A stretch of 64,000 bases of DNA. Source: Eledone cirrhosa (Eukaryota). The stretch lies in NCBI GenBank assembly GCA_964016885.1, contig OZ024761.1:11656001-11720000 (forward strand), given 5' to 3'. A program made the translations under genes and the position numbers. Under the pieces are notes generated by a model. It had not been told where the DNA came from. It did not search any database and saw only the letters and a list, made by a program, of their open reading frames with translations. Positions 25,829 to 45,652 of this stretch are shown here, in pieces (positions within the stretch are counted from its first letter, which is position 1; every line of letters begins with the position of its first letter).

Positions 25829-28800
25829 TCAGCATGTACCCATGGGAGGTCGGGTACCCTGTATTACTGCGTGACGCCAGAAGTCACGGTCGTGTGTCAT
25901 TGACTTTGAGAGGTGTAGTTGGGTAAGGTCGGCTTTTATCACCTCATCCCAAGTCATCTTGGGTCTCCCCACTCCGCGGTTTCCATCAACTTCTAGTGCT
26001 CTGCACCTTTTTATGCAGCTGTCATCCTTCATACGCATCACATGTCCATACCAGCGTAACCGCCTCTCCTGCACGCAGCATTTGATTCCTCTTATGCTCA
26101 GTCTCTCTCTCAATTCATTTATGCTTTGTCGTTCACGTATATTACTGTTACACATCCATCGGAGCATGCAGGCTTCGTTTCTCTCTAATCTACGTAAGTC
26201 TTCCACCTTCAGCGCCCAGGTCTCACTACCATGCAACATCGCTGTTCGGATACACGCATCATACAGTCTGCCTTTCATTCTGAGGGAGAAGCCTTTTGCA
26301 GCTAGCAGTGGTAGTAGTTCCCTAAACTTCTTCCATCCCGTTCTTACCCTAGTTATTGTACTTTCTGAGCACCCACCTCCGTTGCTAATTCGGTCACCTA
26401 GGTAGCAGAAGCTGTCTACTGTTTCTACAGGGCCCTCCCAGAGATTGGTGGTACTTGTTTCCTGTGGCTGTTTGCTTGCTGTTTCAGCACAGCTGCTGCA
26501 TGTGAATCCTACATTCTTAATTAAGCTTCCTGAGATCCCGCTACATCTCTTGTGTACCCATTGTTTGCATTTGGGGCAAAGAATGGAGTTCCTACCTACA
26601 CCTTTCCTACATACTGAGCAAGGCCATTTCCCTGAGGGGATCTGGGTTCTGTTTTCTCGTCTACTTATAAGGACCTTAGTCTTTGTCATGTTGACTTTGA
26701 GGCCCTTTCTCTCTAGTCCCTGCTTCCAGGTTTGGAATTTATTCTCTAGTTCTACCATAGATTCAGCTATGAGTGCGAGGTCATCAGCATACAGGAGTTC
26801 CCATGGGCATCCGGTCTTAAACTCCTCCGTTATTGCCTGCAGGACTATGATGAACAGGAGAGGGCTAAGAACAGAGCCCTGGTGGACCCCAACCTGTACG
26901 CTAAATTCCTCGCTATACTCATTGCCAATCCTAACTTTGCTGACTGCTCCCCTATACATGGCTTGTACCGCTTTCACAAGCCATTCATCTACTCCTAGTT
27001 TTCTAAGAGCCCACCAGATTACTGCACGTGGAACTCTGTCAAAGGCTTTCTCAAGGTCGACAAATGCCAAGTAGAGTGGCTTACTTTTAGCTAGGTACTT
27101 TTCCTGTAATTGCCTCACAAGGAAGAGCGCATCAGTGGTGCCTTTCCCTGGAACAAACCCAAATTGCATCTCGTCTATATTCACCCGGTCCCTAATCAGC
27201 TGTGCTATAACTCTTTCTGTTACTTTCATGACCTGGTCCATCAACTTTATACCTCTATAGTTTCCTCTATCTAGTGCATCGCCTTTACCTTTGTAGCAGT
27301 TGACAATGATGCTACTGCACCAATCTTTTGGTATGGCCCCCTCTAGTATTACCTGGTTAACGATACGTGTGGTTATAGTGTGACCTACAGACCCAGATGC
27401 CTTCAGCATCTCGGCAGCTATACCCGATGGACCGGTTGCCTTCCCTATCTTCATATCTCTGATTGCCTTACTTACTACGCTGCCGCTGACTTGTACTGCT
27501 GGTCCCTCTATAGGGTCTACGTGGGGTAGGGTCTCTTCTTCCCATGCATTCTCCTCATTTAGTAATCTATCATAATGACTCTTCCATGCATCTTTCTTCT
27601 CAGCACTTGTGAGGGCAAGCTCACCTTTATCATTCCGGATACACTTCTCTCCAATGACATCACAACTATCTCTGACACACTGCCTCGCAATCTTGAATAC
27701 CTCCTGTTTCTGGTCCTCACGTTGTAAAACATGCTTGAATTTTCTATCCTCTGCTTCCCTCCTAGCTAAGTATACTTGTCGCCTAGCTTCCCTCTTGGTC
27801 TCTATGTAATGTACCCTGCTCCCCCCGTTCTTCCATTCTTTCCATGCCTGTCTCTTGGCCTTGACTGCTTCATCTACCTTATTGTTCCACCACCAAGTCA
27901 CTCTCCTCCTGCTTGAGGTCTTACTCCAGCCACAAACCTCATCCGTCGCCTCTAGTAAGTTATTTTTTAGGAACTCCCAGTTCTCTTCTACGTTAAATGT
28001 CTCTATCTGTTCTTCTTTACTGTCGTAGGCGTTGAGTAAAATATCTTTAAATCTGTTACTGGTTGAGGGGACTTTCAGCTTCCAGATCTTTCTTCTCCAG
28101 GTTGGCCTCTGTTTCAGGGCTCGTCTAGTTCTGACCGTGAGGTCGCTGACAACTAAGCTATGTTGGGATGTACATTCCTCACTAGGGAAGGCTTTTGTGT
28201 TTACGACCGTCCATCTGTCACGTCCTCTGATGAGGATAAAATCTAACTGACTAGAGTGCTCCCCTGATCTATAGGTGATCAGGTGGTTGTCGGGTTTTTT
28301 AAAGTTTGTGTTACATATCGACATGTCATTGGCGTCGCAGAATTCTAGAAGTCTGAATCCTTCCTCATTCCTTGTGCCAACTCCATGGCCTCCATGTACT
28401 CTATTGAAGCCGTCGCAGTGTTTACCTACGTGTCCGTTAAAATCTCCTGCAATGATTAGGAAGTCCTTGTCGTCTGTTAGAGCAGTAGTGTGTATTAGGG
28501 ACTCGTAAAACCTATCCTTAAGTTCGTCTGGCAGCCCCGATTGGGGTGCGTAAGCTGATATTATTGTGGTAATTGTCTTATTCAGGACTAGTCTGAGTTT
28601 AATGATTCTTGCATTTACCCTTTACACTGAGATTACTTTATCTACCCACTTGTCAGCTAATAGTATACCTACACCACCCATCCCATCGTCATTTCCCACC
28701 CAGAAAAATTTGTAGCACTGGCTTTTTCCTACAAGGACTCTAGCAGACCCTCCTCTCCATCTAGTCTCTTGCACACAGCATACATCAACTTCCTTTCGCT

Positions 28801-29189: not shown

Positions 29190-30556
29190 GAGGTAGGAAC
29201 TAAGGGTCGCATGGTAAATATCCAAGTTAATACTACATCAGTAAAATTAACAATAATAACGTCATGAAAAAAGCTACTAAGAGAAACCCTCGAAAATTTA
29301 TCGCTAATACAGCAGGGAAAATTTAACGCTAATACAGCAGGGAACATCATAATATTAACGACAATATGTAGGCTAAAATACCTTCGTAGATTAGGTGGAT
29401 GGCTGGCTGGGAAAATTTGAATCAGCTCTAGTGGTACATTTTAGCAGAGAAGAATGGCAAAGTGTCTTATCTCTTCAATATTTTCAGATTGAATGAATTA
29501 GGTTAAAGACAGGGTAGTAAGCCTTAAAGAAGTGCATAGAGGGGGGGGGGGGGGGGTAGGAACTGAGGGTCGCATGGTAAATAACTGAGAGAGATACAAT
29601 AGGATTAGAATACCGCATGGTAAATATCCAAGTTAATAAGTTAATACTACATCAGTAAAATTAACAATAATAACGTCATGAAAAAAGCTACTAAGAGAAA
29701 CCCTCGAAAATTTATCGCTAATACAGCAGGGAAAATTTAACGCTAATACAGCAGGGAACTTCATAATATTAACGACAATATGTAGGCTAAAATACCTTCG
29801 TAGATTAGGTGGATGGCTGGCTGGGAAAATTTGAATCAGCTCTAGTGGTACATTTTAGCAGAGAAGAATGGCAAAGTGTCTTATCTCTTCAATATTTTCA
29901 GATTGAATGAATTAGGTTAAAGACAGGGTAGTAAGCCTTAAAGAAGTGCATAGAGGGGGGGGGGGGTAGGAACTGAGGGTCGCATGGTAAATAACTGAGA
30001 GAGATACAATAGGATTAGAATACCGCATGGTAAATATCCAAGTTAATAAGTTAATACTACATCAGTAAAATTAACAATAATAACGTCATGAAAAAAGCTA
30101 CTAAGAGAAACCCTCGAAAATTTATCGCTAATACAGCAGGGAAAATTTAACGCTAATACAGCAGGGAACATCATAATATTAACGACATGAAAAAGCTACT
30201 AAGAGAAACCCTCGAAAATTTATCGCTAATACAGCAGGGAAAATTTAACGCTAATACAGCAGGGAACTTCATAATATTAACGACAATATGTAGGCTAAAA
30301 TACCTTCGTAGATTAGGTGGATGGCTGGCTGGGAAAATTTGAATCAGCTCTAGTGGTACATTTTAGCAGAGAAGAATGGCAAAGTGTCTTATCTCTTCAA
30401 TATTTTCAGATTGAATGAATTAGGTTAAAGACAGGGTAGTAAGCCTTAAAGAAGTGCATAGAGGGGGGGGGGTAGGAACTGAGGGTCGCATGGTAAATAA
30501 CTGAGAGAGATACAATAGGATTAGAATACCGCATGGTAAATATCCAAGTTAATAAG
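29190..30556. repeat. ~410-414 bp tandem monomers (about 3.3 copies) at the RTE 5' end
   Basis: gtcatgaaaaaagctac recurs at 29261, 29675 and 30085; units are separated by poly-G runs; the third unit has an internal ~100-bp duplication. Confidence 0.9.
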
Positions 30557-30638
30557 ATAGAGAGAGAAATATATATAACCAAAGATGTCTGGAATTGAAC
30601 CATCAAGACTGTTGAGGAATGTCATACATCAATTCATG

Positions 30639-30700
30639 TATTTTATCTGACGAGGACGTACTGAAAAAACAGCACAGTACCTTCGAAATATATATGTATA
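30639..30700 (+). ncRNA. Truncated hammerhead motif variant
   Basis: tattttat-CTGACGA-gga-c-gtactg...cagtac-c-ttc-GAAA-tatatatg; the 3' strand of helix I is lost where the fold-back arm begins. Confidence 0.45.
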
Positions 30701-30740
30701 CGATATTAACAAATGGAAACTATATTTATAAAACCATATT

Positions 30741-30805
30741 TATTTCATTATACATATTTCAAGGACACCAAGTTAAATTATGGTGTGCTTTCATCAGATA
30801 AAATA
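30741..30805 (-). ncRNA. Inverted copy of the same hammerhead motif, sense to NUP50 and the RTE
   Basis: Exact reverse complement of 30839-30903 inside a long inverted repeat. Confidence 0.6.
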
Positions 30806-30838
30806 TAATATAGAGCAGTTTTATAAATATATATATTA

Positions 30839-30903
30839 TATTTTATCTGATGAAAGCACACCATAATTTAACTTGGTGTCCTTGAAATATGTATAATGAA
30901 ATA
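30839..30903 (+). ncRNA. Minimal type-I hammerhead ribozyme motif (Penelope-type)
   Basis: Helix I tattttat/atgaaata (8 bp); core CTGATGA at 30847; helix II aag-c-acacca/tggtgt-c-ctt; GAAA at 30884; short helix III; predicted cleavage after AUA at 30895. Confidence 0.65.
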
Positions 30904-31367
30904 AATATGGTTTTATAAATAGTTTCCATTTGTTAATATCGTATTTTTACTCCAATTATTTGTTGAGTGCTTTATATCAGTTATAAAAATATTTGCTTGT
31001 TGTATCCCAACAATTTAAATAGAACTTTTACATATATATATATATACAGAGAGAGATATATATAGATAGGTATGTATAGAGGGAAAGATATAGATAGGTA
31101 TATAGATGAGAGAGAGAGAGAGAAATAATATAAAAATAAAAAAAATAGTTAAAAAAAGGTACATTCTCAAGCCTAAATGATGGCTTCCAATTTTAGCACA
31201 AGGCCTGCAAATATGGGGAAGTTGATTATATCAACCCCAGTACTTAACAGGGAGTTGGAAGAGTTGTTAGAGGGGTTCAGATTAAAAATACCTGTTGGTA
31301 TTAGGAAGAGCATATGGCTGTCTCAAAAGATCCCACCCAAATCTAAGCCATCATCATGATCATCTAT

Positions 31368-31780
31368 CTGTAAAGTGGTTGTGCTGGTGACATGACAAAA
31401 AGCACCAAGTACACACTATAAAGTGGCTGTGTTGGTGCCATGAGAAAAAGCGGCAAGCACACATTGCAAAATGGTTGTGTTGGTGACATGACAAAAAGCA
31501 CCAAGTACACACTATAAAGTGGCTGTGTTGGTGCCATGAGAAAAAGCGGCAAGCACACATTGAAAGTGGTTGTGTTGGTGACACGACAAAAAGCACCAAG
31601 CACACACTGAAAGTGGTTGTGTTGGTGACACGACAAAAAGCGCCAAGCACACACTGTAAAGTGGTTGTGTTGGTGACATGACACAAAGCACCAAGTACAC
31701 ACTGTAAAGTGGTTGTGTTGGTGACATGACACAAAGCACCAAGTACACACTATAAAGTGGTTGTGTTGGTGACATGACAA
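31368..31780. repeat. ~45-bp tandem repeat with higher-order duplication
   Basis: Unit aaagtggttgtgttggtgacatgacaaaaagcaccaagtacacact; resembles the RTE 3' UTR segment. Related arrays at 4390-4560 and 54025-54230. Confidence 0.82.
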
Positions 31781-32199
31781 CCAACCGCCCGTCCAAGCTT
31801 CCAGCTTCTGCCATATTGATTGCGGAGGTATTTCAAGTCCTTCTTCAATAAAGGAGGGGTGGGTTGAGAAAGAAAACAACAAAACCTCCACCGACCCCCC
31901 CAGCTTCTGCCATATTGGGTGTGGAGGTATTTCCAAGCTGGTTACATAAGCAAATTAAATAGAATGTTATCAACTTGTGGGAAATGAGATGAAAGCAGAG
32001 GCAAGCTCACCAAGTTCCATCCAGACAAGTTTAGCCAACTAATATCGAGAAATGAAAAATCAATAAAACTGTTAAGATAGCAAAGAAAGAAAAAAAGAAA
32101 GAAAGAAAGAAAAAAAGAAAGTAAGAACAACAGAACAACAACAATCAGACTATTAAACTGCTACAGTAATATTTTCTACAGAAAGACAAAGGCTTTTGT

Positions 32200-33476: not shown

Positions 33477-34985
33477 GTATCGTGGCTCTTAGAAAACTAG
33501 GTGAAGATGAATGGCTTGTGAGAGCTATACAAGCCATGTATAAAGAAACAGTCAGCAAGGTTAGAATTAACGAATATAGCGAAGAATTTAGCGTAAAAGT
33601 TGGTGTTCATTAAGGCTCTGTCCTCAGCCCCCTCCTATTTATTATTGCCCTTTGGGCTATAACAGAGGAGTTCAAGACCGGCTGCCCATGGGAACTTCTA
33701 TACGCAGATGATCTAACTCTCATAGCTGAATCGATGGCTGAACTAGAGAAGAAATTCCAATCATGGAAGCATGGCCTAGAATCAAAAGGCCTTAAAGTTA
33801 ACTTGTCTAAGACTAAAATTCTAGTATGTAGAAAGGAAAATAGGTTACAGGTACCCTCTGGGAAATGGCCATGCTCAGAGAGTTGGAAAGGAGTAGGCAG
33901 AAATTCCATTTTATGTCCCAAATGCAAACTATGGGTACATAAAAGATGTAGTGGGATCACAGGTAAGCTATCTAAGAACATAGATTTTATATGTGGCCGA
34001 TACTCAGGTGCAATAAGTAGCAAGTGCCCACAGGATACTAGCTCCTTCTATTGCCCAGATGGTTCTATAGAAATAGTGGACACCTTCCGTTACCTGAGTG
34101 TCAAAATCAGCAGTGGTGGAGGGTGCTCTGAAAGTACAGTAGCCAGAGTCAGAACGGAATGGAAAAAGTTCAGAGAGCTAATACCACTATTGGCCACTAA
34201 GGGTTTCTCTCTAAAAATGAAAGGCAGGCTGTATGATGCCTGTATACGAACAACAATGCTGCATGGCAGTGAGACATGGGCTTTGTTTGCAGAGGATCTA
34301 CACAGATTGGAGAGGAACGAAGCATCCATGCTCCGTTGGATGTGTAATAGTAATATATGTGAACGGCAAAGCATAAATGAACTAAGTGAGAAATTAGGAA
34401 TAAGAGGGATCAGATGTTGTTTACTTGAGAGAAGACTACGTTGGTATGGTCACGTGATGCGCATGAAAGACGACAGTTGTATAAAAAACGTGCAGGGCGA
34501 TCAAAATTGATGGAAGTTACGGAGTAGGTAGACCCAGAAAAACCTGGGACAATCTGATAAATTCCGACTTTACACACTTACACCTCTCTAAGACAATGTC
34601 ACTCGACGGAGATCTTTGGCGCCACGCAGTCATACAGAAGACCCGCCTTGCCTATGTACAAAGCGAAACCTACAGTCAGTAGGCGCCTCTAACAAAAGTA
34701 CACCCCCGTCCCACTACCCCCACACCACTATTTCTCTCTAAAGTTATGTTGGTACCACAACATCCAGTCCTAAATAAATGAGGCCGTGTAGTAACACGGT
34801 AAATAGCTCCCAGTTCCACACTGTAAACGTGGTTGGTGTTAGGAAGGGTATCCAGCCATAGAAAACCTGCCAGATAGCCCTATACGAGCGAGACATAGTC
34901 ATCCGACCATTCTTACCTCAAATGGGACAATTCCCGTCTAACCCATGCTAGCGTGGAAGATAGACGTAAAACGATGATGATGAAG
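33477..34985 (+). mobile_element. Degraded 5'-truncated RTE LINE (RT C-half, PHD finger, 3' UTR)
   Basis: Homologous to 25.5-27 kb (YADD, WVHKRCSG, RLRWYGHVMR); contains a stop and frameshifts. Confidence 0.88.
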
Positions 34986-42338: not shown

Positions 42339-42659
42339 GACAATAATGATGGTAATGCAGATATGATGTTGACCACAACGATCTCACCTTTTCTGTTCAA
42401 ACCAGCCACTCATACTGATGTTAAGGTATTGTTCTCAAAATAAATAATATCAAAATCTCAGATTTGATATTATGTAAGGTAAAGCCATTACCGTGAAAAT
42501 ACAATAGTATATGTAGAGTAATGTAAATGGTAAAGGGTTAAATAACAATAATGATAAGAAGCATTCCTATTTCCCAGCCCCCTTTTTTTGCTCCATCATC
42601 TTTGAATATCTAATATATATATATACCAGTGCATTACTGGACCCTTTTCTATATATAGA

Positions 42660-45652
42660 TACATCTGTTCGAATCCTACGTCAGAAGCATCGACCCTGAC
42701 TTCATCACAGTCACGGAAACATGGGCACATTCCTTACTCTGTGATGGGGTTTTCACCATTACTGGGTACAACCTTTTCCGCAAGGACCGCATTAACCGCC
42801 GTGGTGGTGGTGTGATGGTCTACGTTCGTTCAAACTTTTCGGTAATTCCTTGCGTTGATTTGAACGAATCACAGGAAGAAGTTTTTTTCTGTGACATACG
42901 TATGACCATGTCAACACTTCTGCTTGGTGTTGTTTATCGCCCCCCAAACTACCATCAGGACACACAGCTTTGCGATATCCTCAGAGTTGCTGCCAAGAAA
43001 ACAGCCACTTATGTGTTTATTGCAGGTGACTTCAATCATCCTGAGATCGATTGGGAAACCTTTCGTTGGCCACAGGGTGCAAACGATTTCCTTGAACTAG
43101 TGCTGGACTCAAACTGGTCACAAGTAGTCACCTCTCCAACAAGAGGTGACAACACTTTGGACCTGATCTTCACCACTACTCCTGAAGTGGTTATCAGTTG
43201 TACTACTGAGGAACCTCTAGGCGACTCTGATCATGCTATGATCATTGCCAATCTGGCACTTGAGGGCAGCAACAAAAACCAGAGCCATCTCCAATCTGCT
43301 TGCTTTGATTGGAAGAGGGCAGATTGGAACTTGTACTGCACTGAGCTACAGCGCCCAAACTGGCATGAGATGTATAACTCTGGAGATGTGAACTCTATAC
43401 TCCAGAGCATCCTGGACTCAATATGGATAGCGTGTGCAGCATCAGTGCCACGGAAGCGGAAAAATAACCACCCCAAAAGTGCAATCTGGGAAACTTCAGC
43501 AGTCCGACTTGCCAGGAAAGAACGTCGGAACGCTGAACGGGAATATAAACTGCATAGATCAGATGCCAACAGAAAAAAGCGGAATAAATCTTCTAACCAT
43601 CTCAAGCAAGTGACAAAGAAGGCAGTGCTTGAATTTGAACAGTGCATCGCAACCAATCCCGACAGTAAGGTGTTCTGGAAATATGTTCATTCAAAGCAGA
43701 GACTTCACTCTCCAGTTGGTCCTCTTCGCAATCCCCACACAAGCCAGATCACTGACGATCCCAAGGAATGCGCAGAACTCATTGCTGAGTGCTATGCAAG
43801 TATTTTTACTGTTGAAAACCAGAATGTACCATCTCCACCATCTCTAACATCAAATTCCATAACAACTATGGAATTTACACCTGCAATGTTGCGACGTCAC
43901 CTTAAGAATAAGCGCAACTATGCCTCCCCTGGTCTTGATGGTGTGACATACCTGCTTCTCAAACGTGGCGGGGATTTCCTTTTGCGCCAGCTTTCTTTTT
44001 TCTTTCAATACTGTCTCAGCAATGGTGCTACTCCAGAGCAGTGGAAAACTGCCAGTGTCATTCCCCTGTTCAAAAAGGGCAACCGCATGTCACCTGTCAA
44101 CTATCGTCCAGTCAGTCTTACTAGCTGTATGGCCAAACTGATGGAATCCTGTGTCAGAGAAACACTTTGGAACTTCTGGAGCTCTCACAGCCTCATCCGG
44201 CCCTCACAGTTTGGATTTATCCCTAACTCCAGCTGCTGTGATCAGCTTATCGAGTTCCTTGAGGACATCACCCGGATCACTGACAGCGGCTCATGGGTGG
44301 ATGTTGTTTACCTTGACTTTGCTAAGGCTTTTAATTCTGTGCCACACAAAAGACTTATGGCAAAACTCTCTGCAATGGGTGTGAGGGATGATCTTTTCGA
44401 CTGGCTGAAATCCTTCATTCTCAGCCGAAAGGAAGTAGTCACAGTTCTAGGACAGCATTCTTCACCATATGAGATGTCATCTGGTGTACCACAGGGATCT
44501 GTTCTTGGTCCTCTTTTGTTTGTGGCATATATTAATGACATAGATGCCAACTTACAGAATGCCACGGTACTAAAATATGCAGATGACATCAAGCTGTACC
44601 TTGAAATCAAAAGGACTGATCCTGAAATTTACAACTCTTTCCTACAATCAGACCTGGACACAATGCAGCAATGGATCACAGACTGGCAACTGAAGCTGGC
44701 TGTGGACAAGTGTACCACCATGCATTTTGGAAGGAAAAATCCAGCGTCCACATACTCCCTCCACAACACTGACATCAAAAAGTCCTCTTGTGAACGTGAC
44801 CTGGGCATTACTGTCAGCAACGATTTGCGTTGGACAAAGCATGTCTCTAAGATTGTCAAGAAGGCCGAGGGTGTCTTGGCATCACTCAGCAAGACCTTTG
44901 TTAGCCGCTCTCCAGCCATCTATTTAAAACTGTATACAGCTATGGTGCGACCACACTTGGAATTCGCATCATCAGTCTGGAACCCCTATCTTGCTCGGAA
45001 CATTGACCTCCTGGAAACTGTTCAGAGACGTGCAACCAAGCGCATACCCTCCATCAGACACCTACCATACTCTGAACGCCTTGCTTCCCTGGGCATGGAT
45101 TCATTGAAGCTCCGACGTCTGGCAGTGGACTTGGTGAATACCCACAAAGTTTTTAACCATCTCGCCAACTGCAACCCTGAGCGCCTCTTTGATCTCCATG
45201 TATCTAACACACGTGGACATGCCTACAAGATAAGAAAACAGCACAGCTCCCATGACTTTCGCAGACATTTTTTCACGCTCAGAGTTGCTGAAACATGGAA
45301 CAAACTGCCTGCGTCAATTGTTAGCTGCCGAGACACTGCATCCTTTAAGACACTCATGCTTCCCGAAATACGCCAAAACTACACCTGATGTGCCCCTTCC
45401 ATACACATGCACACATGTGTGCACTGTTCATTTTACTGATGTTTGTGCATTGCCCTATGTACTGTACATGCACTTTTTTGATGGGTTGTGGTGCACCTGG
45501 GCACTGTGCACAATATTTCATTATTGTTATTGTTATTATATCATGACTCATACACTGTTTATTTTCCTGACATTTGTACATTATTCTATGTACTATACAT
45601 GCACCTTTGATGAGTTGTAGTGCACCTGAGCACTGTACACAATAATTTCATT

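Follow-up and report, generated by a model that had tools for sequence, protein, structure and literature searches.

Organisation of the locus

The window, a 64,000-nucleotide stretch of the Eledone cirrhosa genome, contains the NUP50 gene, which is found on the minus strand as seven coding stretches from 39039 to 10128 when searched by tblastn with the Nup50 proteins of Octopus and Argonauta. Its first coding exon gives a Pfam NUP50 match, and the RanBP1-domain exon matches at 95-98% over 40 residues when set against the Nup50 proteins of Octopus bimaculoides, O. sinensis and Argonauta. Three hammerhead ribozyme motifs lie in the large intron between coding exons 1 and 2 (Table 1), and the window letters confirm them where the original prediction had placed them. 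Since NUP50 occupies the minus strand, the minus-strand motif is sense to the pre-mRNA, as had been proposed and as the exon placement bears out.

Table 1. Features of the NUP50 intron and of the insertions within it (pLTR, pseudo-LTR; PLE, Penelope-like element; positions in the window).
Feature	Position	Strand	Remarks
NUP50 coding exon 1 (aa 1-~23)	starts 39039	-	
NUP50 intron, ~22 kb, between coding exons 1 and 2	17056-38969	-	exon 1 boundary approximate
NUP50 coding exon 2 (aa 24-53)	17055-16966	-	
Inverted stub of family B long 3' end, 10 nt	30577-30586	-	beside (TA)n run; reverse complement of natural B long ends
Family B pLTR, 5'- and 3'-truncated	30589-30695	+	51 family matches; ~1.2 kb behind RT/GIY-YIG ORF in most of 25 loci
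Broken hammerhead, family B	30639-30696	+	antisense to NUP50; by comparison with intact B copies
Left arm: inverted 5'-truncated family A pLTR, short 3' end (about +101 from C3)	30698-30830	-	sense to NUP50 pre-mRNA
Hammerhead motif, family A, type I	30741-30805	-	intact, sense to NUP50; predicted 3' product start 30748
Right arm: 5'-truncated family A pLTR, long 3' end (about +189)	30831-~31033	+	ends in (TA)n
Hammerhead motif, family A, type I	30839-30903	+	predicted cut after AUA at 30895
PLE tail, ~88 nt	30945-31033	+	on one arm only

Two of the motifs, here called family A, are exact inverses of one another, as originally described, and lie inside complementary arms. The segments 30723-30812 and 30832-30921 are 100% complementary over 90 nt, and the pairing extends to 30698 and 30944 with a 2-nt bulge; the two arms share 99% identity, and a folding computation on the inverted arms gives -176.9 kcal/mol with a z-score of -28. 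The plus copy continues ~88 nt past 30944, to ~31033, and what was taken for a 19-nt loop is mostly additional 5' sequence of the left arm. The flanks are TA/GA microsatellite, in which no target-site duplication is readable.

The third motif belongs to a different family, B. Its core (30647-30653) and helix II are intact, but position 17 (30696) is a G and helix I lacks its 3' strand, which rules the motif out as a functional hammerhead. Intact family B copies extend past the point at which this one ends, and the remainder of B is absent from the 64-kb window. Because this motif is a family B sequence, its helix II differs from that of the other two as a difference between families, and the single cluster with internal helix II covariation that had been proposed gives way to two families, one nested in the other. 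The 10-nt stub, whose sequence occurs once in the window and which is found in the same arrangement at locus L034, suggests that it is the left arm of an older head-to-head insertion, and that B would thus also be such a pair.

Several other repeats surround these insertions. A tandem array at 29208-30559, whose ~410-bp units agree at 97-100% and contain a 98-nt internal duplication, adjoins the family B stub, and a search of it found no hammerhead motif. LINE-type ORFs encoding an RT followed by a PHD finger are present at 25829-28621 (-) and 33614-34510 (+), an APE-RT ORF at 42659-45388 (+), and a 48-bp minisatellite of about ten units at 31324-31828. The first of these ORFs and the ~410-bp array were considered as partners of the hammerheads and rejected, as neither has a hammerhead and the ORF is of the APE-RT type.

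Hammerhead motifs

Hammerhead residues are numbered by the standard scheme, in which cleavage follows an NUH triplet. The type-I core CUGANGA...GAAA, helices I, II and III and the NUH site are all present in the intact family A copies, and parts of this set are missing from the broken B copy. In the plus copy, helix I pairs 30839-30846 with 30896-30903 (8 bp, including one U-G), CUGAUGA occupies 30847-30853 and GAAA 30884-30887, helix II (30854-30883) consists of 3 bp, a C.C mismatch, 6 bp and a 10-nt loop, and helix III is AUAUGUAU. This copy had been said to fold completely. Helices I and II and the core are indeed there, but helix III of a monomer would have a loop of 2 nt, so that the complete fold exists on paper only.

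Features of the motif recur through 84 unique copies. The AUA triplet is found in 77 of them, and helix II has C.C as its fourth position in 65 copies and C.U in 11. Helix III, whose eight bases the descriptor did not constrain, is self-complementary in 74 (some of the loci behind this count came from a pattern that did constrain helix III), with palindromes such as ATATGTAT, ATATATAT and ATGCGCAT. This conserved palindrome supports the original assignment to the dimer-type hammerheads of PLEs, and in the element's own RNA the hammerhead would likely cut as a dimer held together by the 8-nt helix III. Weak cleavage in vitro is reported for such dimer-type hammerheads in PMC4209133. In 66 of the 84 motifs, including all 51 of family A, the conserved G-C pair at 10.1-11.1 is replaced by A10.1-U11.1, which may lower activity in family A; family B has G-C or G-U.

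The expected covariation across genomic copies was found in an alignment of 40 natural copies from several families, in which 94.5% of cells pair and eight of the nine helix II pairs change on both sides. None of 500 shuffles reached the covariation score, which is inflated by the kinship of the sequences, a relatedness that the controls do not remove; three of the 40 rows are a misaligned other family. The Rfam hammerhead models, also named as a check with the original prediction, gave no match at E values up to 5 or 10, and a scan of the locus returned only miRNA-like hairpins below threshold and no hammerhead family.

The hammerheads that Cervera and de la Pena (2014; PMC4209133) describe from PLEs share with these the type-I form, an enlarged helix II and a short palindromic helix III suited to dimers. 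Also common to both are many families per genome with compensatory changes, a predominance of solo remnants, and dual motifs on opposite strands, separated by 100-700 bp. The present motifs differ in their 8-bp helix I and in the A10.1-U11.1 pair of most families.

The parent Penelope-like element

The original suggestion that the motifs mark a Penelope terminus is confirmed by full-length copies that carry an RT and a GIY-YIG nuclease. One family A locus contains an RT-like frame, which as a query gave 116 scored matches at 87-100%; 10 kb were fetched around 20 of these, picked mostly for long open frames. In 18 of the 20, the ORF is followed on its own strand, after 1.4-1.9 kb, by family A sequence, which was out of view in the other two. 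A further family A copy stands just ahead of the ORF in nine of the 20, and 235-237 nt before the ATG in all seven that were checked. The unit is thus pLTR-ORF-UTR-pLTR, ~4.5 kb long.

The 743-residue ORF product (L101:3191-5419) comprises a telomerase-like RT with a C-terminal GIY-YIG domain. Its structure model (pLDDT 90, pTM 0.89), compared by VIA-align, matches telomerase 6zdp first among the RT folds, with Z 14.2 and an rmsd of 4.4 over 287 aligned residues, with DRT2, DGR and yeast telomerase level with it to within 1 Z. Residues 618-720 superimpose on the GIY-YIG domain of I-TevI (1ln0) with Z 9.7 and an rmsd of 2.1 over 88 of 92 residues. Asparagine-rich inserts are seen at residues ~484-510 and 588-597. 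A Pfam search with the 743-residue ORF gave no match, and sequence searches of Pfam and PDB, run with the ORF or an alignment of it, gave nothing useful, one of 20 homologues scoring as GIY-YIG. As the Pfam RT and GIY-YIG models fail to detect the ORF and its ~700-residue relatives, the clade is easily left unclassified.

The Hydra clade of PLEs is defined in PMC8557442 by RW(K/R), DKT, a CxCX5C linker, CxxC and CxH, with no CCHH. The family A ORF has RIRWR at 36, DKT at 119, YRDD, CNCRNKSNC (CxCX5C) at 602, CDLC (CxxC) at 700 and CRH (CxH) at 727, and the CCHH pair is absent. These motifs match the Hydra definition, and by motifs rather than by a tree family A is classed as a Hydra-type PLE. 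For family B, all 25 loci found through an upstream nuclease fragment carry pieces of a related ORF, ~60-67% identical to family A in the RT, and in most of them B sequence lies about 1.2 kb beyond these pieces. Both sequences are therefore pLTRs of RT plus GIY-YIG elements, with hammerhead-bearing pLTRs, an inverted 5'-truncated copy and a one-ended tail all present, and their insertions lie in (TA)n.

This architecture agrees with that described for the Hydra clade by Craig et al. (2021; PMC8557442), whose members include Hydra-1_Obim of Octopus bimaculoides. They likewise have a single ORF with an RT plus a GIY-YIG domain at the C terminus, the motifs listed above and (TA)n targets, together with a type-I hammerhead near the 3' end, an inverted 5'-truncated 5' copy and a one-ended tail. 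There are differences, however. The octopod element is ~4.5 kb long with a 3' UTR of 1.2-1.9 kb, whereas Hydra elements are generally <3 kb, a tendency that is not diagnostic; its tail is 88-96 nt, compared with 30-40 bp for PLEs; its pLTRs are clear, whereas Hydra-1_Obim is listed there with none; and its long helix II with a C.C or C.U mismatch is unlike the Hydra-1_Obim sequence given in the supplement.

The alternative guess made originally, that the motifs come from a non-LTR retrozyme, a tandem hammerhead repeat that is non-autonomous and is amplified by way of circular RNA, did not hold. The type-I hammerhead with its palindromic helix III speaks for such an origin. Type-I hammerheads at very high copy numbers (126,247 in axolotl) are likewise a feature of retrozymes (Cervera and de la Pena 2020; PMC7229834), which bioRxiv 2026.07.22.740005 reports to have arisen from PLE pLTRs. 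Retrozymes are built of tandem non-coding monomers of ~300 nt, however (PMC7229834), whereas the sequences here are ends of coding elements, either dispersed or inverted. Tandem direct monomers are absent, the ~410-bp array has no hammerhead, and an autonomous ORF exists, all of which makes a retrozyme origin very improbable.

Abundance of the hammerhead families

Two separate sets of genomic copies were recovered with the two sequences. The right arm gave 41 matches, the best 40 of 326 candidates being scored, at 92-100% identity, and the family B motif gave 51, with the best 40 of 1101 candidates scored. One copy of the right arm, at locus L001 (G000:C23:10690273-10690385), is 100% identical over 113 nt, pointing to recent activity.

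A genome-wide descriptor search, the other check named with the original prediction, found 78,204 motifs with a single pattern for the shared core and helix III, and none in the reversed control. The family A pattern accounts for 11,050 motifs, and tight head-to-head pairs with a gap of 10-40 nt number 434. With a relaxed descriptor, 662 kb of fetched loci yielded 182 motifs, and three shuffles yielded 0, 0 and 0. The overall density of ~26 per Mb is high beside published counts: >6000 hammerheads in Acropora, ~5000 in mussel and 126,247 in axolotl as totalled in PMC7229834, and, in PMC4209133, 4,000-9,000 in coelacanth and Xenopus, to be set against the 78,204 found here by one pattern. Family A is a Hydra-type PLE that is young and very abundant and has near-intact ORFs.

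Among the first 100 listed motifs, neighbours closer than 500 bp comprise 14 head-to-head, no tail-to-tail and two direct pairs, so that 28 of the 100 are in head-to-head pairs, in a 10-Mb chromosome end that is unrepresentative of the genome.

Additional families were seen in the fetched loci. Family C hammerheads, with a 36-nt helix II region, a C.U mismatch and the helix III ATGCGCAT given above, are abundant (L125, L131, L132, L143-L147) and are often in head-to-head pairs. A further family at L084:3664-3725 (-) and L116:8114-8175 (+), with a different helix II and the helix III ACCACTGG, is found near an RT 47% identical to that of family A. A literature search found no description of these octopod hammerhead families and no link to editing; Repbase, Dfam or an O. 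vulgaris library may hold them.

Origin of the fold-back

In each family the 3' end falls at one of two fixed sites ~90 nt apart, about +101 and +189 from C3 in family A and about +107 and +203 in family B, the longer including the tail of 88-96 nt. The two arms of a head-to-head pair nearly always take one of each. Of the 44 pairs that could be classified, 40 combine a long with a short end (p about 1e-8 under even odds), the exceptions being three short-short pairs and one long-long pair. The rule holds through the separate sets, with 16 of 18 (20 seen), 8 of 9 (11 seen), 9 of 10 (14 seen) and 7 of 7, the last comprising the first 30 pattern loci, read by eye with one other-family pair dropped. 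The pair loci are best matches and hence young copies. Within a pair the arms are 98.2% identical (19 pairs), compared with 92.4% between pairs, and an arm's own partner is its closest relative in only 10 of the 19 pairs.

Inverted copies and a one-sided tail have already been described for PLEs, in PMC8557442 and PMC3846280, and the present counts of ends sharpen that picture. In the rotifer Penelope, palindromic head-to-head junctions were read in the latter as self-priming, in which a single cDNA (or antisense RNA) is folded back and copied. Many of the tight junctions listed here are likewise near-perfect palindromes with near-identical arms, and for the short insertion in the window alone self-priming and priming from two ends look the same. 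Four longer insertions (L061, L102, L103 and L117), however, have an inverted pLTR joined directly to mid-ORF sequence that it does not copy. A single cDNA that folds back would have its adjacent ORF copied, a route that cannot yield such junctions, and we regard self-priming as unlikely.

On the strength of the long-short rule, these mid-ORF junctions and the two-strand result of PMC11167929, we infer that the pairs arise by priming at both ends of a cut target. A PLE protein is reported there to cut and extend in vitro both strands of AT-rich DNA and to use two RT start sites. By this route the GIY-YIG nuclease would cut both strands of a (TA)n target, each DNA end would prime reverse transcription at the pLTR, one from the long site and one from the short, and both cDNAs would stop early and be joined to give the fold-back. 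The enzyme in that study, PAc, is a Poseidon element of Anolis (Frangieh et al. 2024), from a different clade to the octopod element; it likewise has two RT start sites that define the tail and a hammerhead near the start of the ORF. No difference in start site between the strands was seen in that study, whereas the pairs here nearly always have one long and one short end.

In the window the target was probably the TATATATA of family B helix III, the 3' part of B having been lost, so that family A probably entered this TA run after B had inserted. At two other loci (L040:1501-2137 and L043:1290-1798), secondary insertions fall at the TA run of family B helix III or immediately behind it, B resuming afterwards, and the insertion in L040 is an A-type pair within that run. 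The ribozyme palindrome may double as an insertion target.

Contigs of four sequencing runs include the repeat, but none of them spans this stretch, as is expected for a high-copy repeat, and an assembly or long-read artefact might be suspected. The two arms nevertheless differ by a 2-nt indel, in their 5' truncation points and in the tail carried by one of them, and they follow the long-short rule as do 39 other pairs; we consider an artefact extremely improbable. We conclude, with high confidence, that the locus is a head-to-head pair of 5'-truncated pLTRs from a PLE with Hydra motifs, set against the cut-off end of a second family, that it is likely the product of one insertion into a TA run, and that it is likely inert.

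The sense ribozyme and the NUP50 transcript

The fold-back had been suggested to mask the sense copy, and as a prediction this stands. In a fold of the NUP50 strand the hammerhead pairs have a probability of ~0, and imposing helices I and II takes 90.5 kcal/mol, the amount by which the hairpin is favoured. In a head-to-head pair, a transcript of either strand meets the antisense arm first; in the NUP50 pre-mRNA the antisense arm would be transcribed first and the sense ribozyme captured on emerging. As the two arms are predicted to pair over the ribozyme and mask it, the insertion is likely inert and the host transcript likely uncut.

It could be supposed that this arrangement has been exapted as a switch, the hairpin masking the sense hammerhead in NUP50 pre-mRNA until editing or unwinding releases it. 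The minus copy is intact and sense to NUP50, long hairpins are ADAR substrates, and octopus RNA is heavily hyper-edited according to PMC5625713. The insertion is young, however, since its arms are near-identical to each other (99%) and to other copies (up to 100%). A monomer would need the 2-nt helix III loop, no second intact sense hammerhead copy is present in the window or in 10 kb either side, and unmasking would have to overcome the ~90 kcal/mol given above. As a young insertion that is one of many, it is very unlikely to have been exapted. A special tie to NUP50 is likewise unsupported, the locus being one of ~78,000 motifs and 434 equally tight pairs; it is ordinary transposon debris, one of tens of thousands of PLE remnants.

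Double-stranded RNA and wider significance

Octopus is reported to have an exceptional fraction of near-perfect dsRNA loci together with hyper-editing, with no repeat assigned to them in PMC5625713, where Penelope is also described as heavily edited in a lizard. The fold-back hairpins are candidate ADAR substrates. An inherited signature of editing was sought among singleton variants on the sense strand, and no excess of A>G over T>C was found, the rates per 1000 being 2.3 and 2.3 in the A pLTR, 1.8 and 2.2 in the A ORF, and 3.6 and 3.1 in the B pLTR; nothing here thus suggests that these elements are fed by edited RNA.

The locus itself has little significance, and the interest lies in the family. 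The strict pairing of one long with one short end leaves a footprint in the genome through which the question of how PLE head-to-head pairs and tails form becomes testable. We raise, as a tentative and somewhat doubtful possibility, that coordinated two-ended priming from long and short sites makes near-perfect hairpins of a large share of insertions, that the resulting thousands of fold-backs are a main source of octopus dsRNA and A-to-I editing, and that their ribozymes are silenced from birth. Should this be true, PLE fold-backs would be a counterpart of inverted Alus, and a source so far unnamed; and, if they turn out to be major ADAR substrates, the high dsRNA content of octopus described in PMC5625713 would be explained in part.
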